Below are positions 3,584 through 35,467 of a DNA stretch of 35,467 bases, one piece after another (position 1 is the stretch's first letter; each line of letters begins with the position of its first letter). The stretch covers positions 1-35,467 of the forward strand of contig CAZZJU010000002.1 in the NCBI GenBank assembly GCA_964654805.1, read 5' to 3'. This stretch comes from an uncultured Thermotogae bacterium. Its GTDB lineage: Bacteria > Bipolaricaulota > Bipolaricaulia > UBA7950 > UBA9294. The translations under genes and the position numbers were made by a program. The notes under the pieces were generated by a model. That model ran no database searches and was not told where the DNA came from. It saw only the letters and a list, made by a program, of their open reading frames with translations.

Positions 3584-3594
3584 GAGGGTAGGTA

Positions 3595-4053: not shown

Positions 4054-4068
4054 TCCGTTCTTCCGGTC

Positions 4069-6147: not shown

Positions 6148-6149
6148 CC

Positions 6150-6458: not shown

Positions 6459-6477
6459 ACGACGGAGGTTCATGAGG

Positions 6478-11402: not shown

Positions 11403-11413
11403 AGGAGGCCGCG

Positions 11414-11725: not shown

Positions 11726-11726
11726 G

Positions 11727-14744: not shown

Positions 14745-14745
14745 G

Positions 14746-16035
14746 ATGTGGGAGACGTTAACCAACGTTTTCCGCGTCCCGGAGCTGCGTAAGCGTATTA
14801 TTTTCACCCTGGGAGCGATTATTGTCTTCCGATTGGGAACGCACATCGCAATCCCAGGGGTAAACGCGGACGCGCTGAAGCACTTCTTCGAGTCTCAGGG
14901 CGGGGGGATCTTCGACTTTATGAACATGTTCACCGGGGGGGCGCTTAAGCGATTCTCCCTGTTTGCTCTTGGAGTAACTCCGTACATCAACGCCTCGATT
15001 ATCTTCAGCCTTCTTACCGCTGTGGTTCCCAAGCTGAAGGAACTGCAGGAGCAAGGACGTGAAGGACGGCGCAAGATCACCGCTTACACGCGTTGGTCGA
15101 CCGTCGGACTGGCGGTAATTCAGGCAGCAGCGATGAGTTTGCTCGTTGTTAACTGGGGACTGGCGAAGGGAACGGTTTGGTTCTACCTTACCTCGATAAT
15201 TGCTATGACCGCCGGTACGATCTACCTGATGTGGCTCGGTGAGCGTATGACGGAGAATGGTATCGGAAACGGAATCAGCATGATAATCATGATCGGTATC
15301 CTCGCTCGCCTCCCCGCGCAGTTCCAATCGACGTACATTGAAATTACGGCCGGTACAGTGAGCCCATTTTGGGGGATCGTGTTTATCGGCCTTCTCATCG
15401 TGGTGATCGCTGGTGTGGTTATGATCCAGCAGGGACAGCGCAAGATTGTCATCCAGTACGCTAAGCGGACCACGGGAAGGCGCATCTATGGTGGACACAC
15501 GTCGCACCTTCCGATCCGCGTTAACCAGGGTGGAGTAATCCCGATCATATTCGCCCTTGCGCTTCTGTCAATCCCGATGACGATCGGACAATGGATTCCG
15601 TCACTTGCCTGGATTACCCCATATGTGCGTGCTGGGAGCCTTCCTTATATGATTGCGTACGTGATTTTGATCTTCTTCTTCACTTACTTTTACAGCTCGA
15701 TCGTCTTCGATCCTGAGGACGTGGCGAAGAACATCCGCGAGTCGGGTGGATTCATCCCCGGGGTTCGCCCGGGTAAACCGACCGCTGATTACATCTCCAT
15801 GATCCTCAACAGGATCCTGTTGATTGGTGCGGTGTTCCTATCGGCGATTGCGGTACTTCCGTATGTATTCACCGCTATCTCCGGAATCCGCGGGATGTAC
15901 ATAATCGGGGGAACATCGCTTCTCATCGTGGTAGGAGTAGGGATCGATACGATCATGCAGATGGAGGCGCACCTTGTCATGCGCCACTACGAGAGCCTGA
16001 CCAAGAGCGGTGGGCTTCTTGGAAGGAGAAAATAA
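14746..16035 (+). CDS. secY: Preprotein translocase subunit SecY
   Basis: 429 aa, multi-TM. FALGVTPYINASIIFSLL, ..MWLGERMTENGIGNGISMII. Canonical position after rplO. Confidence 0.97.
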   Translation: MWETLTNVFRVPELRKRIIFTLGAIIVFRLGTHIAIPGVNADALKHFFESQGGGIFDFMNMFTGGALKRFSLFALGVTPYINASIIFSLLTAVVPKLKELQEQGREGRRKITAYTRWSTVGLAVIQAAAMSLLVVNWGLAKGTVWFYLTSIIAMTAGTIYLMWLGERMTENGIGNGISMIIMIGILARLPAQFQSTYIEITAGTVSPFWGIVFIGLLIVVIAGVVMIQQGQRKIVIQYAKRTTGRRIYGGHTSHLPIRVNQGGVIPIIFALALLSIPMTIGQWIPSLAWITPYVRAGSLPYMIAYVILIFFFTYFYSSIVFDPEDVAKNIRESGGFIPGVRPGKPTADYISMILNRILLIGAVFLSAIAVLPYVFTAISGIRGMYIIGGTSLLIVVGVGIDTIMQMEAHLVMRHYESLTKSGGLLGRRK

Positions 16036-16664
16036 TGGCCAAGAACAAGATTATCCTCCTCGGTCCGCCCGGAGCGGGTAAGGGGACGCAAGCGAAGCGT
16101 TTGGTAGAGAAAACCGGACTTTTACACCTTTCGACCGGGGATATCCTGCGTGACGAAGTGGCACGGGGAACCGAGTTAGGCAAACAGGCTAAGGAGTACA
16201 TGGATCGTGGCGATCTCGTCCCTGATGACCTGATCATCGGGATGATCCGCGGGCGGATCGCAAGCGCGAACGGATTCATCCTTGATGGATTCCCACGTAC
16301 TGTTGCCCAAGCGGAAGCGCTCGAGAAAATTACCCCGGTTGATATTGTGATAAACATCGATCTTTCCCGTGAGGAAGTGGTTCGGCGTTTGTCCTCACGG
16401 CGTGTCTGTCGAAATTGCGGAAAGATCTACAACTTAATCAGCAACCCTCCCAAGGTGGAAGGGAAATGTGATGCGTGTGGCGGGGAGCTGTATCAACGTG
16501 ACGATGATCAGCCCGAAGTAATCCAGAACCGCTACGACGTCTACATGAAATCGACTGCTCCATTGATTGAGTTCTACCGCACACGCGGGATCTTAGCGCA
16601 AGTGGATGGCAAAGCTACGCCGGAGGAGATATTCACTCGTATCATGAACCTCATCGCCGGATGA
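16035..16664 (+). CDS. adk: Adenylate kinase (Cys4 LID)
   Basis: P-loop GPPGAGKGTQA, STGDILR. LID CRNCGKIY..CDACGG. 209 aa. Confidence 0.96.
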   Translation: MAKNKIILLGPPGAGKGTQAKRLVEKTGLLHLSTGDILRDEVARGTELGKQAKEYMDRGDLVPDDLIIGMIRGRIASANGFILDGFPRTVAQAEALEKITPVDIVINIDLSREEVVRRLSSRRVCRNCGKIYNLISNPPKVEGKCDACGGELYQRDDDQPEVIQNRYDVYMKSTAPLIEFYRTRGILAQVDGKATPEEIFTRIMNLIAG

Positions 16665-20478: not shown

Positions 20479-20523
20479 GCCCTTCGCACACTATTCACGA
20501 CGCGAAGGGCATTTTTCGTTTTT
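20479..20523 (+). terminator. Rho-independent terminator closing the ribosomal super-cluster
   Basis: Perfect 9-bp stem GCCCTTCGC (20479-20487) / GCGAAGGGC (20502-20510) with a 14-nt loop, followed by ATTTTTCGTTTTT (20511-20523). It is the only hairpin in the 70-nt gap between the convergent rplQ and the 20535 gene. The opposite side lacks a good T-tract, so it mainly serves the + strand. Confidence 0.8.
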
Positions 20524-20534
20524 AGGATTGGATT

Positions 20535-21515
20535 TCATATGCTGGGATCTTCTCCTGCCAATTTTTGCCGCAAGCGGGAGAGCATGTCAGTGACCATAGT
20601 GCTAAGATCGAATTTCGGTTCCCATCCCCATTCTTCTCGTGCGGCGGAGTCATCGATCCGCTTCGGCCAGGAATCAGCAATCTCCTGGCGGAAATCGGGA
20701 TGGAATTCATAGGTGAACTCTGGGATATGTTTTTTGATTTCGAGCGCTAATTCCTCAGCGGAGAAGCTCATGCCAGCGAGGTTGAAATCGCAGTGATGCT
20801 TGAGGCGATTAAAATCAGCCTCCATCAGTTCGATCGTGGCACGAATGCAATCCGGCATGTACATCATCGGAAGCACGGTGTCCGCGCGGACGAAGAAGTT
20901 GTAATGCTCTTCCTGTAGTGCCTTGTAGAACACTTCAACCGCATAGTCGGTCGTCCCACCGCCAGGTAGGGTCTCGCTCGAGATGATTCCGGGATATCTC
21001 ACTCCGCGAACGTCAAGGCCAAACCGGCGCACGTAGTAGTTACCGAGTAGTTCTCCTGTGACTTTAGTCAGGCCGTACATCGTAGTCGGCCGCAAGACGG
21101 TCTCCTGAGGCGCAGGATCGCGCGGGGTTTCCGGCCCGAACACGGCGATCGAACTCGGAACGAAGACGCGGGTCATGTTGTTGATTCTTGCCACCTCAAG
21201 CACATTATAAAGCCCGTTTATGTTCACCTGCCAGGCAAGATCAGGTTTTTCTTCCCCCACTGCCGACAGGATCGCTGCCATGTGAAATATTGTGTCGATC
21301 TCGTATTTCTGTACCACCTCTTCGATCCTGACCCTGTCAGTAACGTCGACATGCTCGATCGGACCCGAATCACGTAGTTTAGGCGATGGTGGGGTGATGT
21401 GATCGGTAGCGATCACGTTCTCCGCTCCGTACCGCTCTCGTAGGGCTAGCGTGAGTTCCGAACCGATCTGCCCGACAGCTCCAGTGACCAGTATGTGCTT
21501 CATCCGCTTTTCCAA
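20535..21515 (-). CDS. NAD-dependent epimerase/dehydratase-fold (extended SDR) enzyme, L-threonine 3-dehydrogenase-like
   Basis: Rossmann motif TGAVGQIGS and catalytic YGLTK (YxxxK). From memory, it resembles SDR-type threonine dehydrogenases through ..RYPGIIS..GGGTTDYAVEVFY..LPMMYMPD..IPEF. TTG 21515 lies 6 nt after SD AAAGGAG (21522-21528). ATG 21503 is the alternative start. Confidence 0.7.
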   Translation of the reverse strand: MEKRMKHILVTGAVGQIGSELTLALRERYGAENVIATDHITPPSPKLRDSGPIEHVDVTDRVRIEEVVQKYEIDTIFHMAAILSAVGEEKPDLAWQVNINGLYNVLEVARINNMTRVFVPSSIAVFGPETPRDPAPQETVLRPTTMYGLTKVTGELLGNYYVRRFGLDVRGVRYPGIISSETLPGGGTTDYAVEVFYKALQEEHYNFFVRADTVLPMMYMPDCIRATIELMEADFNRLKHHCDFNLAGMSFSAEELALEIKKHIPEFTYEFHPDFRQEIADSWPKRIDDSAAREEWGWEPKFDLSTMVTDMLSRLRQKLAGEDPSI

Positions 21516-21530
21516 ATTTATCTCCTTTCT

Positions 21531-22277
21531 TTAGAGAAACTCAAATTTCCCCTTTCCGCAGCACGGGCAGGCCTCATCCCGGGGGATAATTTGGGTGGAG
21601 AACCTTTCCTGCCAAAGATCCAGTGTGATAAGTCGGGTTGGGACTTCCACTGCACCGAGGAGAATTTTGATCCCTTCTGCAGCGGCGATCGCTGCGATGG
21701 CGCGCGGGACCGCGTTCAGAAGCCCACTTGTTCCTGCGGTGAGAACTGCGCTGTCAGGTGGTGGGTTTGGGATGAGACAACGTAAACATGCCCCTTTTCC
21801 GGGAATTATTGGCATTACTTCTCCGTATGTTCCAGCTACAGCCGCGAATACCCAAGGAACGCCGTGTTTGATACACGCATCGTTTGCCACATACCGAGAC
21901 GGATAGTTATCCAATCCGTCGAGCACTATATCCGTTTTCGTCACTAACTCTTCAATATTTGCCGGTCCGATTCGCATGACACGATAGTCAATATGTATCT
22001 CGGAGTTGACTTTTCGTAAATGCTCTGCAAGAATCTCCGCCTTCGCGCGTCCTACATCCTCTTCGGTCACGACACTCTGCCGCTGCAGGTTGGATAATTC
22101 GAGCAAATCATTGTCGACCAGGGTGACTCTTCCCACTCCGGCCCTCACTAGAAGTTCGGCAACATTAGAGCCAAGCGCACCGCAACCAAGGACAAGGATA
22201 CGCGATTCACGTAATCGTACCTGGCCGGTGTGACCTATCTCAGGCAGGTCGATCTGCCGTTCGTAACGATTCTCCAT
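21531..22277 (-). CDS. MoeB/ThiF-family E1-like adenylyltransferase
   Basis: YERQIDLPEIGHTGQVRLRESRILVLGCGALGSNVAELLVRAGVGRVTLVDNDLLELSNLQRQ (nucleotide-binding fold). Two CxxC pairs (CLRC, CPCC), as in the E. coli MoeB/ThiF zinc site. 248 aa. ATG 22277 lies 7 nt after SD AAGGAG. ThiF versus MoeB cannot be resolved by eye. Confidence 0.85.
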   Translation of the reverse strand: MENRYERQIDLPEIGHTGQVRLRESRILVLGCGALGSNVAELLVRAGVGRVTLVDNDLLELSNLQRQSVVTEEDVGRAKAEILAEHLRKVNSEIHIDYRVMRIGPANIEELVTKTDIVLDGLDNYPSRYVANDACIKHGVPWVFAAVAGTYGEVMPIIPGKGACLRCLIPNPPPDSAVLTAGTSGLLNAVPRAIAAIAAAEGIKILLGAVEVPTRLITLDLWQERFSTQIIPRDEACPCCGKGKFEFL

Positions 22278-22290
22278 GGGTTCTCTCCTT

Positions 22291-25200
22291 TTAGAAGGTG
22301 GCGGTTACGGTGAGCTCAAAAAGCACGCTATTATATAGATTGCCGTCCGATTTGAGCCCGGTCAGGTAGGAGGAGGAAAGGGAAGCACTCCATGTGTCGG
22401 ATAGCGTTACGTCAGTTCCTCCGCGCAAGCTCAAGTTGAACTGGGGACGGGTAGCCCCTTCTGCGTAGCGACTGTTCAGTACTATCCTAGCAGAGACGGT
22501 CTTCGAAAGGGGATAGATGAAGGTATTTGTCAGATTGCCGGTTAAGTTCAGCTTTTCTTTCTCTTCACTTGTACGGAGGGAAAACGATAGTTCATCGCTT
22601 ATACCGCCTTGAGGTCTGTAGGATAACTTACCAATCAAGCTGCGATTAAGCCGTGGTTTTGCTACTCCGTTATAGATGACCGAGCTGAGATTTTGCGTGT
22701 ATGTAATACTGGGACGTAGATCAGTAATGCCCGAGTACGACAACCGAACCGTAAGACGATCCGAGACCTGTTCCCGCGGTTGCCATAATCCGGAAAACTC
22801 ATGGCTATAGTTAATTGTCGTTTTGAACTCGGAGTAGTCTATCGTTACAGTTCCGCCTCCACTTACCGTCCATACCCCGTTTTTGTCCTTGAAAGAAACA
22901 TTGGCGACAGGGCTCAGTTGCCAATCACCGATCTTAAGTTTTACTGGACGCAGATTGATTTTGCCAGTTTGATTACCTGTAATGGCTTCGCTTCCTAATG
23001 ATCTATTTAGTTTCATCTCGTAGTTTGCACTTACGATCCCGATGGTAAACCGGTGTGACCAATCAAGTTTGCCGGTGAAAGTTTCGCTGCCTGTACGGTT
23101 TTTTGACACATTTACTGGGCGAGTGAAATTCCCCGAGATTGTCAGGTCATGGGTTGCCCGGAGAGTAGCGGCCAAACTCAAATTCGTGTTCCGGGTGGTT
23201 TTAGACGGGGACACCGCCCAGGCAAAAGTATCGGTCCAATTGAGGTTTAAATCCAACGAGCTTAGGAATAGTTTGTCGGAGAGCCCTATTCTGTAGCTCA
23301 GTTTGCCGGAATCAAAACCGGGCGTTTCCCGATTGTCGTCAACCAACCCATGGTTAATGGCGACTGACAGTTTGGGGCCGAATATCCATGAAAGGGAGAC
23401 GGAATTATCCAACGTGGTTTTGGGATCATCAGTTGAAGAGTCGATCAAATAGTAGGAATGAGAAGCGGTTAATGACAGATCATCGGATAAGTTGGCCTTC
23501 CCATCGATTGTCCAGCCGGTCTTATCTTCTCTGCCCAAGCGGCCTATCGCGGTGAATCGAGGGGAAATGCTCTCGAATGTTCCGTCGAGTGTAACTGGGC
23601 CTAGATCTCTGGTGAAGCTTGCACGGGCGATCCCGCCACGGTCGGTGTGTAAGGCAGCCGGGATATCAGTGAATCGTCCGGGATCCCGTCCAGCGATCTT
23701 AGTTTCGCTTGAAGTATAGGATTCGTATGTTCCATCCTCTGCATGGAGTACTTCGATTTCGTAGTCCGAGTTAGCGCGTGTACCCGCCCACATTCCGCCT
23801 TCACCGTCGGGCGAAATCGCGGTTACTGCGAGGTGCGAATGAATCTCTTCCCCGGCGAGGGAGTGCAAGCCGCTTTCGTCCCCGTACCAAAGGACTCCGT
23901 TCACTGAGGCAACGGCGTAGACCGGTTTGCCGAAGACAAGCCACCCGGTTCCTATTCCATCCTTGAACGCGCGTAATCCAAGATCACTCGCGGCATAGAT
24001 AATTCCGTTTTTAATGAGCAGGGCGTTTACCTTTACCCCGTTCATCCCTGACAGCGGGGACAACGATTCGGTTGCTGGATCGAGTGAGAACAATCCTTTA
24101 TCGGTTCCGATGTAGACAATCGAATCATCTATCGCAATAGCCCGGATGGTGCCAAGATCGATGATTTTCTGATCGGTGTAAACCTGCCAACTTGTCGGAT
24201 CGTCCATCTTGTCCATCTTCACTGCCGCGATGCCTGCTTCAGTACCCATCCATAGCACACCATCTGCGATCGCTAGCGAATGTACAGCGCTGTTCGGAAG
24301 GCCAGCGTCCGTGGAGTAGCGCTCCCAATTACCCACTTGATCAAGGGGTGATTCTCCCTCCATACTGAGAACGGTGATTCCCGCAGAGGTGGCAAAGAAA
24401 ACGTGGTTGTCAACTGCCTTTATGTCGTAGACCCGGTTGGCAGACAGTCCATCCGATGCTGTATATAAGCTCCAAGTTCCATTGTGATATACGCTCACTC
24501 CAGCGGCATGGGCGAAGAATGCATAACCGTTTGTGCAAACAATTGCATTGACCATGTTTGGCATGTTGGCCCGGGCATTGTCATCAAACGGGAAGCGGTT
24601 ATTGCTGTAACCGAGAGTAAAATCGGCTGAGAACCCATCGAGGGTTACATGGCCGATGATTCCGGATACGGTATGAGTATTCGGCATAGTGCGTACCTGA
24701 TCCGGATCAGTAAGCGGAGTAGGGCTGTCCGCTGCTTGTAGTATGCTTCCTTCCATAGTGATGGCATTGGACAGGGGGAGTTTGATGCTTGCTCCGTAAA
24801 AGTTACGTGAGTATTCAGCAGTACTGCCCAACCCCCCCCGTGCTCGTTCATAATCGATGCGGATGGTATCATTATCTTTTACTTCGACGAGTAATATTAA
24901 TAGACCGGTTTCGTAATCGATTGTGTAATCTGAGTTACGAGTGAGCAGCTTACCGTTGAGGTAGACTTTCTCACTTCCCGAGACGATGGAAAATCCGAGT
25001 GGATAGACGTTGCCTGAGACGGAATAACTAAATGATACGCGCATAGCGCTCTTCTTGCTCGAGAAGAACTCGTCCGGAAACTTAATTTCCAGGATACCTT
25101 GTTTATAGAACACGGTCTTCTGATAATCAGCGAGATCAGGGTCAGTGATCGGTCGGAAGGTAGTTCCGTTTATGCTCACCTCTACCGTTACTGAACCGGG

Positions 25201-26235
25201 CTTTATGTTCTTTTCGCCGAGAAAGTAGAACCGATGTCGTTCCCCGGAGGAGAGAGAGTATGAAGTAGTATCTACGACTAGGGACGTTTGTTCCATAAGA
25301 GAATTGAGAAAAGCTTTTTCGTAATCGGTACCGACGTTCAACGGATATCTCTTCTTATCATTTCCGGTGAGCCCGGATGACTCATTGTAAGTTTTAATGT
25401 ATGCTAAAAGGATGTTACGAATTAGAGTTTGCGGCTCCTGAAGCAGTATGAGATAGTCAGATTGATCGGAGACCACGACAAACGTGCCCTGCTTCAGCTC
25501 GTTAGTCGGTGAAGCGGAGATAGTTTCGTAAAGGTAACCTAATCCGTAATTCGAAAGAAGGTTACGCAATGTGTTAGAAGCGTCAAAACGGAGATCTACT
25601 TCCGAAAAACCCTCGATGTAAGGGGCACTCAGGCGATAGTGATAGAGTCCGTTGAGGTTCTTTGTGTAAGGTTGAGTTGCCCATGGTCGATCCTGCGGTG
25701 CAAAAGAGAACAGTATCTCGCCTTGCGCATTATGGCCGATGAACGTTTTGGATTCGGAAATCCCTTCGATGCGGGAAATGATGCCGGTGATGACCCCCCC
25801 ATCGGGCAGGTTGTAGTCGAGACGTGCTCCCTTAAGTTTCTTGTTGTATACGGCAAACGCTTCCTTCCCTGAAAGGGAGAAATCCCCAAATACGCCGTTT
25901 AAATCACCTGAATGCAGATACAGAGTAAGAGTCTGCATGCTCGGCGGTTCCTGGTCGTTGAAGTGCGCCTTAAGGGTGAGGATGGACAATGCTTCAGCAG
26001 TTATGTCTACAGCGAGAGTCTGATCGAGATCAAGCTGGTAAGGAGCCTGCCCAAGCCCCTGTGGATCACCGATCCCGTAGCGGAGAGTGAACGTTTTATG
26101 CCCGGAGATATTGGCGCTAAAGTTATTATTGTCCTGTCCGAATCCCACAACTAGCACAACCCCCAGGATAAGCCCTATGATTGCCAGCACGTTTATACTC
26201 ATCCGACTAAAAACTGTAAGTGACAGAAGCCCCAT
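22291..26235 (-). CDS. Very large envelope protein: N-terminal signal/anchor, ~550-aa uncharacterised region, 7-blade Reg_prop-like beta-propeller, ~440-aa C-terminal beta-barrel-like domain
   Basis: One uninterrupted ORF. ATG 26235 lies 5 nt after SD GGAGG (26241-26245); alternatives are ATG 26202 and TTG 26277. Hydrophobic segment INVLAIIGLILGVVLVVGF. Seven repeats of the form [V/I]xxIxxDxxGxxWxGTxxGLxxx (nt ~23698-24552). The last ~440 aa alternate hydrophobic and polar residues in short strands and end ..LFELTVTATF, the aromatic C-terminus typical of OMPs. Confidence 0.75.
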   Translation of the reverse strand: MGLLSLTVFSRMSINVLAIIGLILGVVLVVGFGQDNNNFSANISGHKTFTLRYGIGDPQGLGQAPYQLDLDQTLAVDITAEALSILTLKAHFNDQEPPSMQTLTLYLHSGDLNGVFGDFSLSGKEAFAVYNKKLKGARLDYNLPDGGVITGIISRIEGISESKTFIGHNAQGEILFSFAPQDRPWATQPYTKNLNGLYHYRLSAPYIEGFSEVDLRFDASNTLRNLLSNYGLGYLYETISASPTNELKQGTFVVVSDQSDYLILLQEPQTLIRNILLAYIKTYNESSGLTGNDKKRYPLNVGTDYEKAFLNSLMEQTSLVVDTTSYSLSSGERHRFYFLGEKNIKPGSVTVEVSINGTTFRPITDPDLADYQKTVFYKQGILEIKFPDEFFSSKKSAMRVSFSYSVSGNVYPLGFSIVSGSEKVYLNGKLLTRNSDYTIDYETGLLILLVEVKDNDTIRIDYERARGGLGSTAEYSRNFYGASIKLPLSNAITMEGSILQAADSPTPLTDPDQVRTMPNTHTVSGIIGHVTLDGFSADFTLGYSNNRFPFDDNARANMPNMVNAIVCTNGYAFFAHAAGVSVYHNGTWSLYTASDGLSANRVYDIKAVDNHVFFATSAGITVLSMEGESPLDQVGNWERYSTDAGLPNSAVHSLAIADGVLWMGTEAGIAAVKMDKMDDPTSWQVYTDQKIIDLGTIRAIAIDDSIVYIGTDKGLFSLDPATESLSPLSGMNGVKVNALLIKNGIIYAASDLGLRAFKDGIGTGWLVFGKPVYAVASVNGVLWYGDESGLHSLAGEEIHSHLAVTAISPDGEGGMWAGTRANSDYEIEVLHAEDGTYESYTSSETKIAGRDPGRFTDIPAALHTDRGGIARASFTRDLGPVTLDGTFESISPRFTAIGRLGREDKTGWTIDGKANLSDDLSLTASHSYYLIDSSTDDPKTTLDNSVSLSWIFGPKLSVAINHGLVDDNRETPGFDSGKLSYRIGLSDKLFLSSLDLNLNWTDTFAWAVSPSKTTRNTNLSLAATLRATHDLTISGNFTRPVNVSKNRTGSETFTGKLDWSHRFTIGIVSANYEMKLNRSLGSEAITGNQTGKINLRPVKLKIGDWQLSPVANVSFKDKNGVWTVSGGGTVTIDYSEFKTTINYSHEFSGLWQPREQVSDRLTVRLSYSGITDLRPSITYTQNLSSVIYNGVAKPRLNRSLIGKLSYRPQGGISDELSFSLRTSEEKEKLNLTGNLTNTFIYPLSKTVSARIVLNSRYAEGATRPQFNLSLRGGTDVTLSDTWSASLSSSYLTGLKSDGNLYNSVLFELTVTATF

Positions 26236-27064
26236 AACTTCCTCCAAGTTCACCGCTCTCGCGGTAGGAGATATCAATACGCATTGCTGAAAACCGTACA
26301 GATAATCCCATGCTCGGTCCGCTTGAATTCAATCCTGCTCTTACTCCGAGTCTCCCCACCCAGCCCTCGATCCCAGCGGAGAACTCAAGGTCAGGTGAAA
26401 AGAGGCCGTTGGCCACAACGGAGAGAGTCCACTCCACTTCATCCGAAGGGTGTAATCGAAGCGCTGCTCCGATATCGAACCCCATTATCCACTCCCCGCT
26501 TACTCCTGTGGAATATTCCACAGCTTGGGAAACAATATTCTCCAGCATCAGCCCGATCCGTAAATTGTCGGTTGCAATGAGTACAGCTGGATCGAACGCC
26601 CACCCAAAGGCGGTGTAAGGGCTTTCAACTTGGTACAACTTAACGCGTATTCCAAAACCCACAGGCCCGATTGCGAAACCGGTGCCAGCGACTCCGCACT
26701 GGCTGACGTAAGAAAAGCCGCCAGAGTCAGTCTGGATCCAGCCAGATTCCAAGCGCATCAGTTCTGCGCCCAGATAGGGGAGGCTGATTCCAACAGTACC
26801 GTAGGACAGAACTCCGTAAGCTTGGGAGAAGTAAGAACTGACCGAAATCCGCTTTTCCCAGCCTAATCCAGCTGGATTGTAGAAAGCCGCGCTTTCGTCG
26901 TCCGCTAGCGGTAGGAATGCTCCTCCAAGGCCTGCGGCACGTGCACCAGTTCCGAGATGGAGAATCGCGGCTTGGTTGGAGTATTGAGAGGCGACGGAGG
27001 AGAATCCGATACTGAACACCAAGAAAACGAGGCCTGTTACTATCTGCGTGGTTATTCTACTCAT
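26207..27064 (-). CDS. Small outer-membrane beta-barrel protein with FadL/PorV-type N-terminal hatch motif
   Basis: Signal peptide MSRITTQIVTGLVFLVFSIGFSSVAS. Then LGTGARAAGLGGAFLPLADDESAAFYNPAGLG; compare the mature N-terminus of E. coli FadL, ..[27 protein letters not shown] (from memory). Gly/aromatic-rich alternating strands. Ends ..GASVTYSF. The ATG shares ATGA with the protease stop. Confidence 0.7.
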   Translation of the reverse strand: MSRITTQIVTGLVFLVFSIGFSSVASQYSNQAAILHLGTGARAAGLGGAFLPLADDESAAFYNPAGLGWEKRISVSSYFSQAYGVLSYGTVGISLPYLGAELMRLESGWIQTDSGGFSYVSQCGVAGTGFAIGPVGFGIRVKLYQVESPYTAFGWAFDPAVLIATDNLRIGLMLENIVSQAVEYSTGVSGEWIMGFDIGAALRLHPSDEVEWTLSVVANGLFSPDLEFSAGIEGWVGRLGVRAGLNSSGPSMGLSVRFSAMRIDISYRESGELGGSYGASVTYSF

Positions 27065-29199
27065 CTCGCTATCACCAACCTACCGATAGCGGTTTGGCTT
27101 GAGCCGTCCGAAAGCATGAACAGATATAACCCAGGAGCGAGTGGTAATCCGCCTGAATCTTCTAAATTCCAGTTGTATGTCCCTTCACCCGGAGGGAGCT
27201 GAGCGGTAAACACCCTCTTCCCAACGACATTGTATATAGTTAATTCTGCTTTATCCGCGTCCTCGGGCACGGTGTAAATAAAACGGGCAAAGTCGTGCAC
27301 AGGATTCTCTGTCAGCTGGATCGATAGCTTGCTCTCACTGGTCGAAGGTGAAGGAGTTACAGCAGCAACTGCAGCATCGGCAGCTAGCTTACCCCATCCC
27401 CACATATTATTTGGTACAACACCGGTGAATTTGTCCGATTTTGCATTTTGCCGGAGTTTTTCCTTTATCTCATCGGCGGTGAGGGTGGGATCAATGGAAA
27501 GCATGAGGGCAACTGTTCCGGTTACATGAGGAGCGGCCATACTCGTCCCGAGGAGGAGGGTGTGGACCCCATCCGGACAGGTGAGATAATCAGCAGCTGG
27601 GGCGGATGACGACATTGCCGAAGCGATCCATGCTCCAGGGGCTGTAATGTCCGGTTTGATCCTGCCATCGCGTGTTGGACCCCGGCTGGAAAAGTAAGAC
27701 AGATCCCCGATAGGGTATTGCGAGGAGAAATCCTGTTCCCCAGCGCGGGATGGCCAACTGTTTTTGGTGTTAAACGCGCCTACAGTGATCAGATGTGGAG
27801 CATTGCCCGGCTCGTCGATGGTTTCTGCTGCGTCTCCGCCCAGAATCGTGCCGTTGTCGGACGTTATCCAACCGTCGAATCTCCCCCCGCCGGAGGCATC
27901 GGTCACGGTGATCTGCCAGGGCATATGCGGGGTAAGTCCAGATAAGTTCAAGATTGCTTCTTTATCCCCGTTATTTGGGTTAACTCCCCCAGAGGCGTTG
28001 TCGACGTACACATTTCCCGCGTAAGTACTCTCCGAATCGCTGGTTCCGGATGGCACGGAGAGCGAGACTCCCCCCGGGGGAACGACAGTGATTGTGAACG
28101 CTGATTCCCCGGGGTACCATAAAATAAAGTCTAACGAGCCATTGGAGGGAACGAGGGAGAAAGTGTAAGCATCACCGTGAAGGCTGCGTCCCACGTGGAT
28201 TAGCTGGTCCCCCTCATTTCCGGCAGAAACAACGATAGCTCTGCCTGATCCCTGAGCAAGCTCATCCAACCCTTGCTCGAACAGGCTTGTCCCATCATGC
28301 GGTCCGTCCTGTCCCCCGAGGCTCAGGTTGACTACAGCCGGGAGCCCAAGTTCACTTGCCTTATCAAATATGTAGCGCACTCCAGCGAGGATATCCGAAG
28401 TATAAAAAGTTGTCTTCACTGATATGATCCATGCTTGCGGTGCTACCCCAATAAATCCGGATGAAGATGCTGACCCGTCCCCAGCAGCGATTCCCATTAC
28501 ATGTGTACCATGACCATCGGTGTCCTTTTCCCGTACCTCTCCTTCTCCGGGGCCGGAACCGCTTGCCAGATCGGCTTCTATCTCCTGCCTGGTGTATGTA
28601 ACGTTGAAAAGTCCGGTTTGGTCCAGGATATAGAGAATACGGGACGATTCTTCAATTCCGTCTCCGTCTGAATCATAGCGGAAGTCCAGGTGAGAGTAGT
28701 CGAGTCCGGTATCAACTGCACCGATGATTACTCCTTTACCGGTAATCGGAGGGACTTGGGAATGGAGGATATCGGCTCCGATTGCTGGAACGCTCCGATC
28801 AAGGGTCGGTTTTGCTTTCCAGGCTGGTTCCACGTAGATAACATCAGAAGCCGCGGCCAGGGTGAGCAATCCCTCAATGGGAACGCGCATCCCAATGATT
28901 GTCCCGGTGGACACAGTAACGGGAAATCCGAGAAAACTCGTTCCGAAGAACGGATGGGAAAGCTTGACCAATACACGTATTGGTTCGTCAGTGGGAAAGG
29001 GAAACGTGATTGTAGAACCAGGTGGCAGGTTGCCGAATCCGGGAATACTTTCAGCGGTAGCATCGGTATCGCCCGCAAGGAGCAGACGCAGGTACGGAGA
29101 CAGCTTTGCTGCCATCGCGGCCGTGCTTACCCATAATAGGCCTGTACACCCAAGTACGAGTAAAAAAACGAATACCAATCGTCTACAGGTTTTCATCAT
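27061..29199 (-). CDS. Secreted subtilisin-family (S8) serine protease with a C-terminal T9SS/FlgD-Ig-type sorting-like domain
   Basis: Catalytic triad motifs in D-H-S order: GAVDTGLDY, DGHGTHVMGIAAG, GTSMAAPHVTGTVAL. Oxyanion motif VVSAGNEG. Signal peptide MMKTCRRLVFVFLLVLGCTGLLWVSTAAMA. The last ~89 aa are ..LTENPVHDFARFIYTVPEDADKAELTIYNVVGKRVFTAQLPPGEGTYNWNLEDSGGLPLAPGLYLFMLSDGSSQTAIGRLVIAR. Confidence 0.9.
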   Translation of the reverse strand: MMKTCRRLVFVFLLVLGCTGLLWVSTAAMAAKLSPYLRLLLAGDTDATAESIPGFGNLPPGSTITFPFPTDEPIRVLVKLSHPFFGTSFLGFPVTVSTGTIIGMRVPIEGLLTLAAASDVIYVEPAWKAKPTLDRSVPAIGADILHSQVPPITGKGVIIGAVDTGLDYSHLDFRYDSDGDGIEESSRILYILDQTGLFNVTYTRQEIEADLASGSGPGEGEVREKDTDGHGTHVMGIAAGDGSASSSGFIGVAPQAWIISVKTTFYTSDILAGVRYIFDKASELGLPAVVNLSLGGQDGPHDGTSLFEQGLDELAQGSGRAIVVSAGNEGDQLIHVGRSLHGDAYTFSLVPSNGSLDFILWYPGESAFTITVVPPGGVSLSVPSGTSDSESTYAGNVYVDNASGGVNPNNGDKEAILNLSGLTPHMPWQITVTDASGGGRFDGWITSDNGTILGGDAAETIDEPGNAPHLITVGAFNTKNSWPSRAGEQDFSSQYPIGDLSYFSSRGPTRDGRIKPDITAPGAWIASAMSSSAPAADYLTCPDGVHTLLLGTSMAAPHVTGTVALMLSIDPTLTADEIKEKLRQNAKSDKFTGVVPNNMWGWGKLAADAAVAAVTPSPSTSESKLSIQLTENPVHDFARFIYTVPEDADKAELTIYNVVGKRVFTAQLPPGEGTYNWNLEDSGGLPLAPGLYLFMLSDGSSQTAIGRLVIAR

Positions 29200-29468
29200 T
29201 CACGAAGTTTACTATACAGGGTCAGCGCAGACAAAGCAGCGTCAAGTGCCCCATTAAAGACGAGTTATTCTTCACCAAGCAATAGACACTGACTTACCTG
29301 CATTCTTATTGACTGATTGTGTAATTTTCAACACATTAGTTGCCGGGAGTGAGCCCTGTAGCGTTGTTTGGATAACATGTAGATCTGCACGCAGCGATTG
29401 ATCACCGAGAGTAGTTGTTGGTAATTGAAGGTTGGTCTTGATAGATTACTTCCGGACAGTTTTCTTTC

Positions 29469-29498
29469 TTTACAACCTGCAGTAGCCTGTGGTATCAT
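29469..29498 (+). promoter_or_regulatory. Candidate sigma70-type promoter for the DUF4139-like gene and downstream + strand genes
   Basis: -35 TTTACA (29469-29474), 18-nt spacer, extended -10 TGgTATCAT (29490-29498). The predicted start near 29505 leaves a short leader carrying SD AAGGAGGGGG before ATG 29518. Motif match only. Confidence 0.45.
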
Positions 29499-29517
29499 CG
29501 ATCAAAGGAGGGGGACC

Positions 29518-30801
29518 ATGTTGGGGAAAATAGCGCCGATCATCGTTTTGATGGTACTAGCGCTGGGGGTAACAACCAGTGCTGCAGGAACAGTTACGTT
29601 ATACTCCCAAGGGATCGCGTGCATCGATGAAACGCAGACCATTACGCTGAATAAAGGGACTAATACCGTGCGGATCTCGGTCCCGTCTGGGTTCGTCCCT
29701 GATTCACTTACGATCGAGTTCAACGGGGAGGTAATCTCTCAGTCGTTCCATGCCGGTACGGCGGATTCGGTGCTTGCAGCCGCGATTGGCAAAAAGATAG
29801 AAGTGGTAGGTAAAGACGGTACGGTCTATCGCGGCATCCTCATTTCGACGGCCGGAGAGATTGTTCTACGGGAAGAAAATGGAACGATCGACCTGATCTC
29901 AAATCCGTCTCGGATCAGCATTTCTGGTAAAGATATTGAGCTTTCTCCTTACCTCGAACTTGTTCTATCCGCCGCTGCATCGGGAAAGGAACCTCTGCGG
30001 CTTACTTACCTCTCGACCGGCTTCAATTGGGCAATGAGCTATGTGGGAACCTTATCCGCGGATGGAAAAGCGCTGAGCCTCACCGGCTGGGCCCGGTTGG
30101 AAAACAACACTGATTATTCACTTTCTGGGATGAGCGTCCAACTTGTGGCGGGACAGGTTAACCAAGTGGAAAAAAGTTACTCGGGAATGCGGGTTGCGGC
30201 GATGGCTGCTCCGCCGCTTCCAGAAGAAAACGCGTTCGAATATCATCTTTATACTCTTCCTGTTCCGATCGATCTCCCGGCCGGTAAAACTGTGCTGATC
30301 CCCTACGGCACGTATTCCGGAATCCCGGTGAAGAAGATTTACACTTTCAAAGGATCCGGAGTTGAAGTCTCCTTGCAATTCAGGAACGACACGGATAATG
30401 GCCTGGGAGTTCCTCTTCCTGCTGGAGACGTTCGCTTGTTCCAGGCGCGATCTGATGGAACGATTTTTATCGGAGCCGACTCAATTGGACATACCCCGAT
30501 AGGAACAGAGGTTTCCCTTGCAGCGGGGAGTGCATTCGATCTCACGGGCAAGAGGACCGAACTCTCGAACGTGAAGCTCTCCGGCTCGACCTACCGCGCT
30601 AGTTACCGAATCGAATTGCGCAATCATAAAGACGAAGCGGTTACGGTAAACGTGCTTGAGCGTCCAGCAGGGAAGTCATGGAAAGTTATTACCTCATCAC
30701 AGTCGTACACCCGAGTGGATTCTGGGACGATAAAATTCGTCGTTAATGTTCCGGCAAACGGGGAAAGCGAGGTCACTTATACCGTTGAATACAGTTACTG
30801 A
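29518..30801 (+). CDS. Secreted DUF4140/DUF4139-like protein (MuiA-like family), function unknown
   Basis: ATG 29518 follows SD AAAGGAGGGGG. Signal peptide MLGKIAPIIVLMVLALGVTTSAAG. N-terminal VTLYSQGIACIDETQTITLNKGTNTVRISVPSGFVPDSLTIE fits the DUF4140 pattern. LRLTYLSTGFNWAMSYVGTLSADGKALSLTGWARLENNTDYSLSGMSVQLVAGQVNQV fits the DUF4139 pattern. Both patterns are recalled from memory. The ORF-track start 29425 is rejected because it lies upstream of the promoter and SD. Confidence 0.75.
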   Translation: MLGKIAPIIVLMVLALGVTTSAAGTVTLYSQGIACIDETQTITLNKGTNTVRISVPSGFVPDSLTIEFNGEVISQSFHAGTADSVLAAAIGKKIEVVGKDGTVYRGILISTAGEIVLREENGTIDLISNPSRISISGKDIELSPYLELVLSAAASGKEPLRLTYLSTGFNWAMSYVGTLSADGKALSLTGWARLENNTDYSLSGMSVQLVAGQVNQVEKSYSGMRVAAMAAPPLPEENAFEYHLYTLPVPIDLPAGKTVLIPYGTYSGIPVKKIYTFKGSGVEVSLQFRNDTDNGLGVPLPAGDVRLFQARSDGTIFIGADSIGHTPIGTEVSLAAGSAFDLTGKRTELSNVKLSGSTYRASYRIELRNHKDEAVTVNVLERPAGKSWKVITSSQSYTRVDSGTIKFVVNVPANGESEVTYTVEYSY

Positions 30802-30814
30802 TCCGCCTGAAGAC

Positions 30815-31069
30815 ATGTTCCTCCGCTACAAGCGGGCGGTGGAGGAAGCAATCTCCCGACTGCCGGTGAAAAACGGGGTCGTGGATATCGATTCAATTTG
30901 GGTTGAGACGTCGCTTCCTTACGACCTCATTCAAGAAATCCTCTCCCGTGACGACCTCGTCCTTCCCGAGAACGTGGAGCGGATTAACACAAAGTCGCTG
31001 ATACAAACGGGGGGCAGGAGTGGGAAGAAAGGGAAGAAGCGAAGACATAACAATAAAGTTCGGCACTGA
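30815..31069 (+). CDS. Hypothetical 84-aa protein with a basic C-terminal tail
   Basis: ATG 30815 lies 13 nt after the upstream stop. Third codon positions are strongly G/C-biased in this frame, as in neighbouring real genes. I recognise no family. The 3' 50 nt overlap the phosphohexomutase start. Confidence 0.45.
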   Translation: MFLRYKRAVEEAISRLPVKNGVVDIDSIWVETSLPYDLIQEILSRDDLVLPENVERINTKSLIQTGGRSGKKGKKRRHNNKVRH

Positions 31070-32504
31070 CGGCTGGCGTGGGGTAATCGCGCGTGATTTC
31101 ACGTTCGGGAACGTCGGCCGCGTCGCTGCCGCGACCGGTAAGTTCCTCGCCTCACCCGAGCGGAAGACACTCGCGATCTACACCGACTGGGGAGCGGAGT
31201 ACCGGCCGGCGGTAGACGGGGTAGTGATCGGCTACGATATGCGGTTCCTGTCCCGCGAATTTGCGCACCACTTCGCGCGTGTCCTCCACGACACCGGGAT
31301 CCCGGTTGTAGTTGCGAACGCGCCGGTGACCACTCCGGCAGTCTCCTACGCTGTTGTCGATCGCCACGCCGCGGCTGGGATCATGATCACCGCTAGTCAC
31401 AATCCGCCGATCTACAACGGAATAAAGTACAAGGCCGAATACGGCGGCTCCGCACCGGGAGAGGTAACCGACGGGGTGGTGGCATACCTGCAGGAGCAGG
31501 TCCCGATCCCCCGCACTCCGGAGGGAGCTGTCCCCGAGGTTGATCTACGCACGCCTTTTCTCGATAAAGTCCGCACCCTGATCGATCCCGCCCGGCTAAA
31601 GGCATCCCCTGTACATGTGGTGATCGACTCGATGTACGGCTCGGCCCAGGGGTACGTAGCTGAGATCCTGCACGAGAACTATGTTCCTTACACGCAAATC
31701 CGCGCCCGACGCGATCCCCTGTTTGGGGGGAAGAAGCCGGAACCGCTCGAGGAGAACCTGGTTCCGCTGCGCGCGGTGATCGCCTCGCTGCGCCCGAAGA
31801 AAAAGCACCTCATTGGGGTGGTGACCGACGGGGACGGCGACCGCGTCTCGGCGATGGACGAACAGGGTGGGTTCATCGACGCCCACCGCACGTTTGCCCT
31901 TATCCTCCGTTACCTGGTGGAGGAGCGTGGGATGCGCGGCGCGGTCGTAACCTCGTTCAACCTGACCGACATGGCGCGTGACATGTGCGAGGACTACGGC
32001 CTCACCCAGATCGTCGTTCCCATCGGGTTCAAGCATCACTGCGAGCAGATCCTGACACGAGGCGATGTATTGGTCGCCGCCGAAGAGAGTGGGAGCATCG
32101 CGATCCGCGGGCACATTCCCGAACGGGACGGGGTCCTGTGTTCGCTCCTTCTCACCGAGATCGCGGCGAGCGCGGGCAAGCCGATGAGCGAGCTCGTCCA
32201 ATCCCTGTTTGATAAGTACGGACCGCGGTTCTACCACCGCCGTGACATCCACGTCCCCCACCGCCTGGAGGTGGTGGAGAAACTCCGGCATAATCCGCCG
32301 GAGCGGTTTGCCGGAAGGACGGTGCGGTCTGTAGAGACTCTCGACGGGGTGAAGCTCCGGTTCGACGATGGCTGGCTCCTGTTCCGCGCGTCCGGTACCG
32401 AGCCGATCCTGCGGCTTTACTGCGAGATGAGAGAGAAAAGGCAAGTGTACGAGCTTCTGGAGGAAGCGGAGAGGTTGGCGAGAGGAGATCTCACACTATG
32501 GTAG
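31020..32504 (+). CDS. Phosphoglucomutase/phosphomannomutase-family (alpha-D-phosphohexomutase) enzyme
   Basis: FGTDGWRG. Active-site Ser loop [14 protein letters not shown]. Mg loop VTDGDGDRV. Sugar loop AAEESGSI. Phosphate loop [16 protein letters not shown] 31020 is the only plausible start upstream of FGTDGWRG. Confidence 0.9.
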
Positions 32505-35380
32505 AAGAATACGATTTCAAGAAGATCGAGGAACGGTGGCGTGACTTCTGGCGGGAGAGAAAGTTCTTCCACGCCGACATCAAAGACACGAAGAAGAAGT
32601 TCTACTATCTCAACATGTTCCCCTATCCGTCCGGGTATCTCCACGTCGGGCACGGGCGGAATTACATCATCGGCGATGTCGTCACCCGGTTCTATCTCAT
32701 GCGCGGATACAACATCCTGAACCCAATGGGCTGGGACGCGTTCGGCCTGCCGGCGGAGAACGCGGCGATCGATCACGGGATCCATCCCCGCGATTGGACG
32801 CTCAATAACATCGCCCACGCCAAGGAACAGTTCCGCGCCTGGGGGATCGAGTACGATTGGGATCGTGAGATAACAACCTGCCTTCCCGACTACTACAAGT
32901 GGACCCAGTGGCTGTTCCTGCAGCTGTACAAACACGGGCTCGCGTACAAGAAGCGGGCAACGGTGAACTACTGCCCGACCTGCGACACGGTCCTTGCCAA
33001 TGAGCAGGTGGTCGGCGGGGTGTGCGAGCGCTGCGGGACCCCACCGGCGCAGAGAACGCTGGAGCAGTGGTTCTTCAAGATCACTGACTACGCCGATGCC
33101 CTTCTCGATGACCTGAAGAAGCTCGACGGCTGGCCGGAGAACGTAAAAAAGATGCAGGAGAACTGGATCGGCCGCAGCTTCGGGGCGGAGGTCGTCTTTC
33201 ACACCGAGAAGGGGGAGGAGATCGTGGTGTTCACCACCCGGCCGGATACCCTGTGGGGGGCGACGTTCATGGTCCTCGCTCCGGAGCATCCGCTTGTCGA
33301 CTCACTCACCACCGCTACCCAGCGCGCCGCGGTCGATGCCTACCGGAAGGAGACGGCCCGTCGCACCGAGATCGAACGTACCTCGACCGAGCGGGAGAAG
33401 ACCGGCGTGTTCACCGGTGGATACGCGATCAACCCGGTGAACGGGGAGAAGATCCCGGTCTGGATCGCAGATTACGTCCTTATGACCTACGGGACCGGGG
33501 CGATCATGGCCGTTCCAGCGCACGACGAGCGCGACTTCGCGTTCGCGCTCAAATTCGGTCTGCCGATCATCCCGGTGATCGAGCGGAGCGACGGGGTGGT
33601 GCGCTCCTACGTGCGGAGCTCCGCGGTCGATCCCGAGTTCGCCGCTGCGCTCGCCGCGGGCGGGTTCGCATACAAGACGACTGAGGATGGATTCACGGTA
33701 GAACTGACCGTCCCCGACCTCGACGGTTACCTTGCGCTCCTCCGCGAGCACCTCAAGCCCGATTGCTGGGCGAGCGTTGCCGGGGCCAGGTTCGCGTTTG
33801 TGTTCAAGGATGGCGTGCGCGAGCTCGACTCCGCCGCAGCGGATCGGGAGATCCTCTCCCGGCTGCAGGCCATAGATCCAAGCCTTTCCGGAAAGCGCAC
33901 GACGATGGAGGTTCTCGCCGCAATCCCGGCCTACGCGGACGTCCTGTTCCACGCCGATCACGGGACGATGCTCCACTCCGGCGAGTTCACCGGCACCCCG
34001 GGGGAGGAGGCGGTCGATAAAGTGATCGCCTGGCTCGAGGAGACAGGGAAGGGGAAGCGAGCGGTCAATTATCGCTTGCACGACTGGCTCATCTCCCGCC
34101 AGCGCTACTGGGGGGCGCCGATCCCGATCGTCTACTGTGAGAAGTGCGGGATCGTACCCGTGCCGGAGGAGGATCTTCCCGTCCTCCTTCCTGATGTCGA
34201 ATTCATCGGCAAGAAGGGACTCGCCGACATCCCGGGCTACGCCGAGACAACATGCCCGATCTGTGGCGGGCCAGCGAAGCGCGACACCGATACGATGGAC
34301 ACATTCGTCGATTCATCCTGGTATTATCTGCGCTACATCTCGCCCGACCGCGACGACGTCCCGTTCGTGAAGGAGGACGTCGACAACTGGCTCCCGGTCG
34401 ACCAGTACGTCGGCGGAGTGGAACACGCCATTCTCCACCTCCTCTATTCGCGGTTCATCACCAAGGCGCTCCACGACATGGGATACGTCTCGTTCGACGA
34501 GCCGTTCAAGCGCCTGTTCACCCAGGGGATGATCTGCCACACCGCCTACCGCTGTCCGGAGCACGGCTGGCTCTACCCGCACGAGGTGAAGGACGGGCGC
34601 TGTCCCCATTGCGGGCGGGAGCTGGAAACCTACAACTTCTCGATGTCGAAATCGAAGAAGAACGTCGTCTCCCCGGAGGAGATCATCGAGCGTTACGGTG
34701 CGGACACCGAGCGGCTGTACACGCTGTTCATGGGACCTCCCGATCGCGACATCGAGTGGACTGAGGAAGGAGTGCGGGGGGCGTTCCGGTTCCTCAATCG
34801 ATTCTGGACGTTGGTCCTGTCGCAGACGGAGCGGGTGAAAGCGGCCCCGAAGGCGGTGAATCCATCCACGCTCGACGCCGCGGGCAGAGCGCTGTGGCGG
34901 CGGTACAACCGGACGGTGAAGAAGGTGACCGAGGACATCGAGGGACGGTTTAACTTCAACACCGCGGTCGCTGCGGTGATGGAGCTCGTGAACGAGCTAA
35001 CCCGCTACGTCGAGGGGGAAAGCGACGACGCGCTCGTGCGCGCAGTGATCGAGGGGCTGGTTCTGATACTCTCGCCGTTCACCCCGTTTGTATGCGAAGA
35101 GCTGTGGCGGCGGATCGGGCACGACGACGCGATTCTCGAACAGCCGTGGCCGGAGTACGCTGCCGACGCGCTTGAGGAGGAAGTCCTCGAGGTCCCGGTG
35201 CAAATCAACGGGAAGGTGCGGGCGCGGGTACAGGTCCCGGCCGCGGTGGGGAACGACCCCGAGGCGCTGAAACAGGCAGCGCTCGCCGATCCCGCTGTTC
35301 AGAAGCGGCTCGACGGGAAGGATCTCGTCAAGGTGATCGCCATCCCGGGGAAGATGGTGAGCATCGTACTTCGAGGTTGA
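32498..35380 (+). CDS. leuS: Leucine--tRNA ligase
   Basis: Class I HIGH motif [16 protein letters not shown] variant [11 protein letters not shown]1 editing-domain motifs [20 protein letters not shown] and [13 protein letters not shown]. Cys clusters CPTC..CERC and C..CPHC. 960 aa. ATG overlaps the phosphohexomutase stop by 7 nt. Confidence 0.96.
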
Positions 35381-35416
35381 AACGGACTTAAAAATCGGGT
35401 AAAAACCGAATATATC

Positions 35417-35467
<51 letters not shown>

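Follow-up and report, generated by a model that had tools for sequence, protein, structure and literature searches.

A probable reduced outer-membrane export and surface-display module, built from homologues of the type IX translocon core, in an operon of an uncultured Bipolaricaulota bacterium

The stretch of DNA considered here (hereafter the window; 35,467 nucleotides, positions 1 to 35,467 of contig CAZZJU010000002.1, assembly GCA_964654805.1) comes from an uncultured bacterium labelled Thermotogae and placed by GTDB in the Bipolaricaulota, and it carries a minus-strand operon whose first three genes encode a subtilase with a C-terminal domain (CTD), a small predicted β-barrel protein and a very large protein of 1314 amino acids (aa). 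Judging from sequence profiles and predicted structures, we think that this operon is probably a reduced outer-membrane export and surface-display module, assembled from homologues of the translocon core of the type IX secretion system (T9SS). The T9SS is regarded as a hallmark of the Bacteroidota and the wider Fibrobacterota-Chlorobiota-Bacteroidota (FCB) group, and its translocon is viewed as a 2,400-residue protein that needs a proton-driven motor. Here, a conserved operon of three genes encodes homologues of just its substrate tag, PorV and SprA, in uncultured, small-genome lineages remote from the FCB group. The features on which the proposal rests are as follows.

27061 to 29199, minus strand: S8 protease (subtilase) gene, 712 aa
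27064 to 27315, minus strand: T9SS type-A-like CTD of the subtilase, aa 629-712 (FlgD_ig, TIGR04183 and CTD profile)
27061 to 27064, minus strand: ATGA overlap of the protease stop and the barrel start (direct sequence reading)
26207 to 27064, minus strand: PorV-like barrel gene, 285 aa
26233 to 26245, minus strand: Shine-Dalgarno sequence GGAGG (26241-26245) and ATG start (26233-26235) of the giant gene (direct reading)
22291 to 26277 from a TTG (1328 aa), or 22291 to 26235 from an ATG (1314 aa plus stop), minus strand: giant gene
22291 to 26235, minus strand: putative half-size SprA/Sov-like translocon with signal peptide (AlphaFold2 (AF2), Foldseek and hhalign)
24652 to 26139, minus strand: N-terminal SprA-homologous region, aa 33-528 (hhalign of A1 against A4, see below)
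23668 to 24570, minus strand: predicted seven-bladed Reg_prop propeller, aa ~556-856 (Pfam, profile matches, DSSP)
22294 to 23646, minus strand: predicted C-terminal barrel region, aa 864-1314 (DSSP of the model, hhalign)

The identity of the giant protein carries most of the argument. Its homology to SprA was established by profile-profile comparison and by predicted fold, since a search of PDB sequences with the giant-family profile returned propellers only and missed SprA. For the profile-profile comparison, an alignment of the giant family (A1) was set against an alignment of 11 SprA-like proteins from other phyla (A4), whose match to F. johnsoniae SprA (6h3i_A, E 8e-109) marks them as bona fide SprA. 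With hhalign, aa 33-528 of the giant protein fell on the N-terminal part of SprA (probability 99.9%, E 1.2e-31, 454 columns), and an alternative alignment placed aa 865-1318 on SprA columns 1196-1811, end to end (probability 89%, E 2.2e-6). Because the homology is collinear at both ends, the giant protein is best read as a half-size SprA homologue with a propeller insert. The curated NCBIfam model of SprA, TIGR04189, gave 33.6 bits (E 6.4e-9), below its equivalog cut-off of 200, in a match limited to aa 411-520 of the 1328-aa open reading frame (ORF) that starts at TTG (~397-506 in ATG numbering). A small β-sandwich domain with a DYTIDYETG motif lies at aa ~410-465, inside the N-terminal SprA-homologous region, and the Pfam scan of the protein yielded matches to the Reg_prop and PorZ_N propellers only.

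The predicted structure points the same way. The AF2 model, which covers aa 115-1314 and was built on 95 homologues (pLDDT 89.4, pTM 0.71), had F. johnsoniae SprA as its top three matches when searched with Foldseek against the PDB (8gl6_A at E 1.6e-20, then 8gl8_A and 6h3i_A; TM-score on the query, TMq, 0.47-0.49). The first-pass annotation of the window had seen a large amphipathic-strand domain at the end of this protein, closing with ..TVTATF, and the model bears this out: over the 1200 aa modelled, DSSP assigns ~25 long C-terminal strands joined by short turns, plus ~8 long N-terminal strands, and the C-terminus indeed reads ..TVTATF. Nor does the protein fall into an unrelated known family, an outcome that the annotation had allowed for; its collinear homology and its three best structural matches all lead to SprA. 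Between the two homologous ends, where the SprA proteins of A4 have a central region with conserved DxDxDG-type repeats, the giant protein has its propeller, seven four-strand blades at model residues 442-742 by DSSP. In Pfam this segment matches Reg_prop (E 5.2e-7) and just reaches PorZ_N_b_propeller (27.5 bits, cut-off 27), and its profile matches are the propeller of a hybrid two-component system (HTCS) sensor (4a2l, E 4.7e-31) and PorZ (5m11, E 4.5e-5). Taken together, profiles and model identify the giant protein as a collinear half-size SprA/Sov homologue in which a seven-bladed Reg_prop propeller appears to replace the central region. An attempt to read the membrane side of the propeller from the DSSP strand count was abandoned as unreliable, the answer hinging on 25 versus 26 C-terminal strands.

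The small barrel, in turn, is a homologue of PorV rather than a generic FadL-type protein. Its 285 aa start with a signal peptide; a helical hatch near the N-terminus (aa 33-69) and ~14 strands follow, and the C-terminus reads ..TYSF. The NCBIfam PorV_fam model (NF033709, cut-off 90) aligns with aa 31-285 at E 4.5e-15, but with 56.1 bits, and the models of PorV (NF033710), PorQ (NF033711) and PorV2 (NF052325) match the N-terminal aa 16-93 with 12.9, 31.8 and 38 bits against curated cut-offs of 250, 220 and 325, respectively. Membership of PorV2 was rejected on this score, the hatch alone being matched. A profile of 33 barrel homologues (A3) aligned over its whole length with F. johnsoniae PorV (6h3i_F, E 1.4e-12), FadL-type chains reaching only E 0.05. 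In the AF2 model (pLDDT 91) the hatch helices at aa 33-69 are followed by ~14 strands, and Foldseek ranks PorV first (8gl6_F, E 9e-12, TMq 0.75), with OmpG and FadL after it. Both the hatch motif and the broader FadL/PorV-like assignment of the first reading have thus held up. Four distant relatives of the barrel (P0162, P0164, P0169 and P0170, ~416 aa) combine a UPF0164/PorV-like barrel and a FlgD_ig domain in one chain; such fusions argue for a direct partnership between CTD and barrel.

The subtilase begins with a signal peptide, continues with a CspB-like catalytic domain and ends in a sorting domain. It matches Pfam Peptidase_S8 at E 5.8e-45, its D/H/S catalytic motifs are DTG, HGTH and GTSMA, and its closest solved relative is CspB (4i0w, E 4.6e-36). 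A public gene call for an identical locus (L081, 7121-9175) starts the subtilase 28 codons later, giving 684 aa, a start that would drop the signal peptide; the longer ORF, from the ATG at 29199, is the more plausible. At the other end of the protein, the ~89-aa tail that had been likened at first sight to T9SS/FlgD-Ig sorting domains passes two models by a narrow margin: FlgD_ig of Pfam, with 28.4 bits over a cut-off of 27, and the NCBIfam model of the T9SS type A sorting domain, TIGR04183, with 23.4 bits over 23. CTDs in related loci pass Pfam Por_Secre_tail as well (37.9 bits in L022, 28.6 bits in L010). An alignment and profile built from the CTDs of related loci (A5) has the motifs NP.., (I/V)Y(D/N)..G(R/K).V, W.L and NGLY(L/I), which are the usual type-A CTD motifs. 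Ranked against PDB sequences, this profile is closest to the CTD of PorU (6za2, E 1.9e-8), then to that of PorZ (5m11, E 2.8e-4) and to an F. johnsoniae cargo CTD (8glj_D, E 1.2e-3), with FlgD only after these; the ranking is weak evidence because very few CTDs have been solved. The hidden Markov model (HMM) of the CTD built from the loci matches always at the extreme C-terminus, and a search of 5.8 billion proteins with the CTD profile retrieved 13 short fragments only. By these profiles, the C-terminal domain of the subtilase is a T9SS type-A/FlgD-Ig CTD, much as the first reading had it.

The three genes are tightly joined. ORF calling of the window places five packed minus-strand ORFs between blocks of plus-strand genes; the protease/barrel and barrel/giant junctions overlap, and the gaps that follow, between the giant gene and a ThiF/MoeB gene and between this and an epimerase gene, are 13 and 15 nt. 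The coordinates agree with the first-pass annotation, which had described five genes with no gap above 15 nt, and its two coupling signals are read directly in the sequence. The protease stop and the barrel start share the ATGA at 27061-27064, and the GGAGG of the giant gene sits 5 nt ahead of the ATG at 26235, both within the terminal 29 nt of the barrel gene. In NCBI assembly GCA_054028715.1 the same ATG was called independently, for an identical 1314-aa giant protein (P0001).

How widely the arrangement is kept was examined from the giant protein outwards. It has more than 120 full-length homologues of ~1270-1460 aa, with 27-85% identity. An exhaustive phmmer search with its N-terminal 525 aa against 1.84 billion representatives gave 88 clusters at E <= 1e-30, beyond which the small domain alone is shared, making the family small and tight. 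Loci were taken from a scan of 185,579 species genomes, one per species, as the best 80 of 130; 36 of the 80 have full-length relatives, and all synteny counts refer to those 36. They come from records named Candidatus Bipolaricaulota/Acetothermia and Candidatus Fraserbacteria and from metagenome-assembled genomes (MAGs) labelled Bacillota, Firmicutes, Thermotogota or Thermotogae. Almost all of the other 44 loci are from FCB-type and other candidate phyla, and most of the 44 share just the small domain (aa ~400-520); a few also share N-terminal segments, and those scanned proved to be true SprA or shorter small-domain proteins. Proteins of ~1,000-1,150 aa in Cloacimonadota (L049), Latescibacterota (L057), Zixibacteria (L045) and Wallbacteria (L043) were likewise set aside as members of the 1.3-kaa family: what they share is the small SprA domain and, in L043, also a short N-terminal segment.

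The trio of CTD-tagged protease, PorV-like barrel and giant gene is found in 29 of the 36 loci, down to ~30% identity of the giant protein, and in a 30th the end of the barrel gene is present at a contig edge. That the same order and tight packing recur so often shows that the arrangement is no accident, and the synteny in related genomes that the first-pass annotation had proposed as a check is there. Clustering of neighbours over the 36 loci found nothing conserved besides the trio. In the Bipolaricaulota and Fraserbacteria loci, a subtilase orthologue occupies the same position, with 40-58% identity. In Bacillota-labelled loci, the CTD-tagged protease is a fervidolysin-like S8 enzyme with PKD domains (L022, L027, L032) or an M6 peptidase (L024). 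The passengers of the CTD are diverse (S8, M6, cohesin/PKD, VWA). One locus, L010, has four CTD proteins within 24 kb, namely an S8 protease, a cohesin+PKD protein, a VWA protein and one of unknown type, and downstream of its giant gene (14280-16339, minus strand) a second, paralogous PorV-like barrel stands beside the cohesin+PKD+CTD protein. Similarly, in L026 (13813-17593, minus strand), a second PorV-like barrel downstream of the giant gene stands beside a CTD protein with three PKD domains.

We consider that such a module might work in the following manner. The subtilase and other CTD proteins would cross the inner membrane by Sec, a step suggested by the signal peptide. In the periplasm, the SprA-like giant barrel and the PorV-like barrel would jointly recognise the Ig-like CTD; the folded passenger would then pass through the giant barrel and exit with its CTD bound to the PorV-like barrel, which would carry it, or perhaps keep it permanently, at the cell surface. 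The propeller that takes the place of the SprA central region is most likely an extracellular cap or a docking platform. Because CTD proteins and barrels occur in one-to-one pairs, because barrel-FlgD_ig fusions exist and because the CTDs resemble the retained CTDs of PorU and PorZ, the PorV-like barrel may be more than a shuttle and serve as a lasting anchor at the surface. What the data give directly is the homology of the three parts, the tight packing of the operon, its phylum-wide synteny and the extra CTD proteins, some beside a second barrel; the direction and route of transport, the binding of CTD to barrel, the placement and function of the propeller and whatever powers export are inferred. 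One could go further and suppose that the trio is a self-contained, motor-independent export and display machine of non-FCB diderms, and thereby an ancestral version of the T9SS translocon or a minimal one, with the propeller as cap and PorZ-like dock, a serine protease in place of PorU and each CTD protein on its own PorV-like barrel; this fuller picture we consider rather doubtful.

Several observations weigh against the proposal of a reduced export and display module. All three proteins score under the curated equivalog or subfamily cut-offs (SprA 33.6 of 200, PorV 12.9 of 250, PorV_fam 56 of 90), which makes them distant relatives, not orthologues, and the CTD of the subtilase fails Pfam Por_Secre_tail (14.8 bits, cut-off 27). 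The fold of the giant barrel is an AF2 prediction, and its strand count, to be set against the 36 strands of the SprA barrel, its cap, its lateral gate and the side of its propeller are provisional. The window has no PorK/L/M/N, PorU, PorW or PorT, and in the 36 loci none of these recurs as a conserved neighbour up to 10 kb from the trio. In Bacteroidota, moreover, the translocon is not known to work without its motor. Finally, in two Bipolaricaulota/Acetothermia genomes, L020 (giant gene 3436-7308) and L030 (9890-13831), neither protease nor barrel adjoins the giant gene. In both of these, priA lies directly upstream of the giant gene, and the protease/barrel pair may have been relocated or lost together.

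The same parts could also be read differently. As the first-pass annotation had also considered, the subtilase might be a processing enzyme, a serine-protease analogue of PorU that sits on the PorV-like barrel, keeps its own CTD and either cleaves the CTDs off other substrates or hands them over to a surface anchor, a reading compatible with the data that we regard as possible, though tentatively so. Its gene lies immediately upstream of the PorV-like gene, much as porU adjoins porV in Bacteroidota; the S8 orthologue is conserved in position and at long range retains 42-44% identity against ~31% for the giant protein (L014, L021), and every variant locus keeps a CTD-tagged protease there, be it S8 (L022, L027, L032) or M6 (L024). 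The ranking of the CTD profile, with the retained CTD of PorU first and that of PorZ second, would fit as well, but only as far as so few solved CTDs can carry it. PorU, however, is a cysteine peptidase of unrelated fold, and the protease class at this position is not fixed, shifting between two S8 subfamilies and M6, a pattern more in keeping with a nutritional protease as preferred cargo than with a sortase. Another reading, which the first-pass annotation had set beside that of a self-contained module, would make the trio a satellite, that is, a paralogous or specialised translocon of a complete T9SS whose PorKLMN/GldKLMN, PorU, PorW and PorT are encoded elsewhere in the genome. T9SS genes in Bacteroidota are scattered and transport is motor-dependent, and FCB-type phyla do have extra clusters of PorV-like and CTD-peptidase genes (L045, L051) alongside true SprA (358 and 572 bits in L044 and L072). 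Yet none of the 36 loci shows a conserved T9SS gene up to 10 kb from the trio, and among the best 80 of 130 loci, a selection that makes this weak evidence, all matches from Bipolaricaulota, Acetothermia and Fraserbacteria are of the 1.3-kaa form and none is a full-size SprA. We also know of no report of T9SS motors outside the FCB group. On balance, a satellite seems unlikely.

Highly improbable, and already disfavoured by the evidence above, is that the giant barrel is an unrelated outer-membrane protein, such as an LptD-like inserter of lipid or lipopolysaccharide (LPS) or a nutrient channel, with the adjacency of the genes reflecting envelope housekeeping or peptide uptake. The operon does lie in a housekeeping region beside a ribosomal-protein operon, the Foldseek list of the giant model also contains LptD and the Deinococcus SlpA barrels, and FadL and OmpG are among the matches of the small barrel. 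But LptD is far weaker (E 1.7e-9, TMq 0.16, against ~1e-20 and 0.47-0.49 for SprA), and an LptD-like or SlpA-like identity was rejected on structural scores much weaker than those of SprA. Sequence profiles give independent homology to SprA at both ends of the protein, the small barrel matches PorV specifically (FadL-type chains only at E 0.05), and the linked subtilase carries a T9SS-type CTD. A reduced module of export and surface display, built on a SprA-like and a PorV-like barrel, is the reading that we prefer.

Beyond the trio, the operon and its surroundings contain the following further features.

21531 to 22277, minus strand: ThiF/MoeB gene, downstream of the giant gene
20535 to 21515, minus strand: epimerase gene of the short-chain dehydrogenase/reductase (SDR) family, downstream of ThiF/MoeB
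29302 to 29331, minus strand: candidate operon promoter, weak sigma-70-like, 9/12 consensus matches, ~100 nt upstream of the protease start

The ThiF/MoeB and epimerase genes come after the giant gene only in its nearest relatives (L001, L002 and L004), and were rejected as members of the module; they are lineage-specific neighbours outside it. As to the promoter, a consensus scan found 13 sigma-70-like sites in the region against a shuffled mean of 8.2 (standard deviation 3.1), an excess that is not significant, and the promoter and terminator scans gave no more sites than shuffled sequence. A G+C-rich hairpin (gcccttcgc/gcgaagggc, 20479-20510) lies between the convergent L17 gene (plus strand, ending at 20464) and the epimerase gene (minus strand, ending at 20535); a T-run comes next in the plus-strand direction, so the hairpin appears to terminate the rpoA-L17 operon. 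Up to 20464, the plus strand of the window holds rpoC, S7, EF-G, the ribosomal-protein operon, secY, adk, map, rpoA and L17, and beyond 29425 come a DUF4139/DUF4140 gene, a phosphoglucomutase (PGM) gene and the gene of leucyl-tRNA synthetase (LeuRS). The DUF4139/DUF4140 gene (29425-30801, plus strand) is divergent from the protease gene; it is present again in L003, placed between PGM and the protease, and is not conserved with the trio more widely. A 336-aa ORF at 11039-12049 (minus strand), antisense to the ribosomal-protein operon, has no Pfam match and is almost certainly spurious. In base composition, the trio stretch (22-30 kb) is the lowest-G+C part of the window (0.48-0.53); G+C is ~0.51 across the operon and rises to 0.60-0.63 over the PGM and LeuRS genes (30000-35467). 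Rfam and tRNA scans of the window gave no matches. Among the 27 large ORFs of the window that were scanned, five against Pfam and NCBIfam and 22 against Pfam only, none has a PorK/L/M/N-type domain, in line with the first reading, which had seen no porK/L/M/N in view.

A different cluster was seen in an Ignavibacteria locus (L051, 1-14127) and a Zixibacteria locus (L045, 1-12439). It opens with the gene of a PorV-family protein, 863 or 943 aa long, in which ~550 aa are inserted between hatch and barrel (PorV_fam 243 bits). There follow, in L051, a 1051-aa M6-like CTD protein with FG-GAP repeats and then three small ORFs and, in L045, a 1094-aa CTD protein, of which the CTD alone was checked. 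Later in both clusters comes a ~1100-aa protein that shares the small SprA domain only, succeeded in L051 by a 555-aa BamA-like protein. This cluster may represent a second, undescribed PorV-linked system.

If the module works alone, it would define the minimal core of the transport mechanism and would offer a much smaller system for reconstitution and structures, with which recognition of the CTD, carriage by PorV and the need for a motor could be addressed; it would also bear on when and where the T9SS translocon arose. The operon is direct genomic evidence that Bipolaricaulota and Fraserbacteria have a genuine outer membrane that holds very large barrels, and the trio is a likely route by which they display proteases and adhesin-like proteins. 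To our knowledge, no SprA/PorV/CTD module has been described from Bipolaricaulota, Fraserbacteria or Bacillota-labelled lineages, and no half-size SprA that bears a propeller.

Set beside the known systems, each part of the module is both familiar and altered. With SprA/Sov, the giant protein shares collinear homology at its N- and C-terminal ends, the top structural matches and a gene position beside a PorV-family gene and a CTD protein, and its model suggests a giant single-chain barrel; the protein differs in length (1314 aa against 2403 aa), in having a Reg_prop propeller instead of the DxDxDG-repeat central region and in its hosts, the 1.3-kaa form occurring in Bipolaricaulota, Fraserbacteria and Bacillota-labelled MAGs and not in the FCB group. 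The small barrel resembles PorV (LptO; PDB 6H3I chain F) and PorQ, which are the FadL-like barrels that shuttle and anchor substrates in the T9SS, in its N-terminal hatch, its ~14-strand barrel and its gene position next to that of a CTD-bearing peptidase, but at 285 aa against ~400 it is much shorter and has short loops, and in some genomes there is a second paralogue, every copy standing beside a CTD protein of its own. The sorting domain is like the type-A CTD (TIGR04183, Por_Secre_tail, FlgD_ig) in its ~85 aa, its place at the extreme C-terminus, its motifs and its diverse passengers, while the scores in the window are marginal and the hosts lie outside the FCB group. PorU (6ZA2) is likewise a CTD-bearing peptidase encoded directly beside a PorV-family gene, and its CTD is the best solved match; the enzyme of the window, however, is a CspB-like S8 serine protease (M6 in one locus) and not a gingipain-like, C25-related cysteine peptidase. 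As for PorZ (5M11), which has two propellers and a retained CTD, the propeller of the giant protein reaches the PorZ_N_b_propeller cut-off and matches 5m11, yet it is far closer to the Reg_prop propellers of hybrid two-component sensors (4a2l), and where PorZ is a separate CTD protein, the propeller here is single and appears to be inserted in the translocon chain itself.

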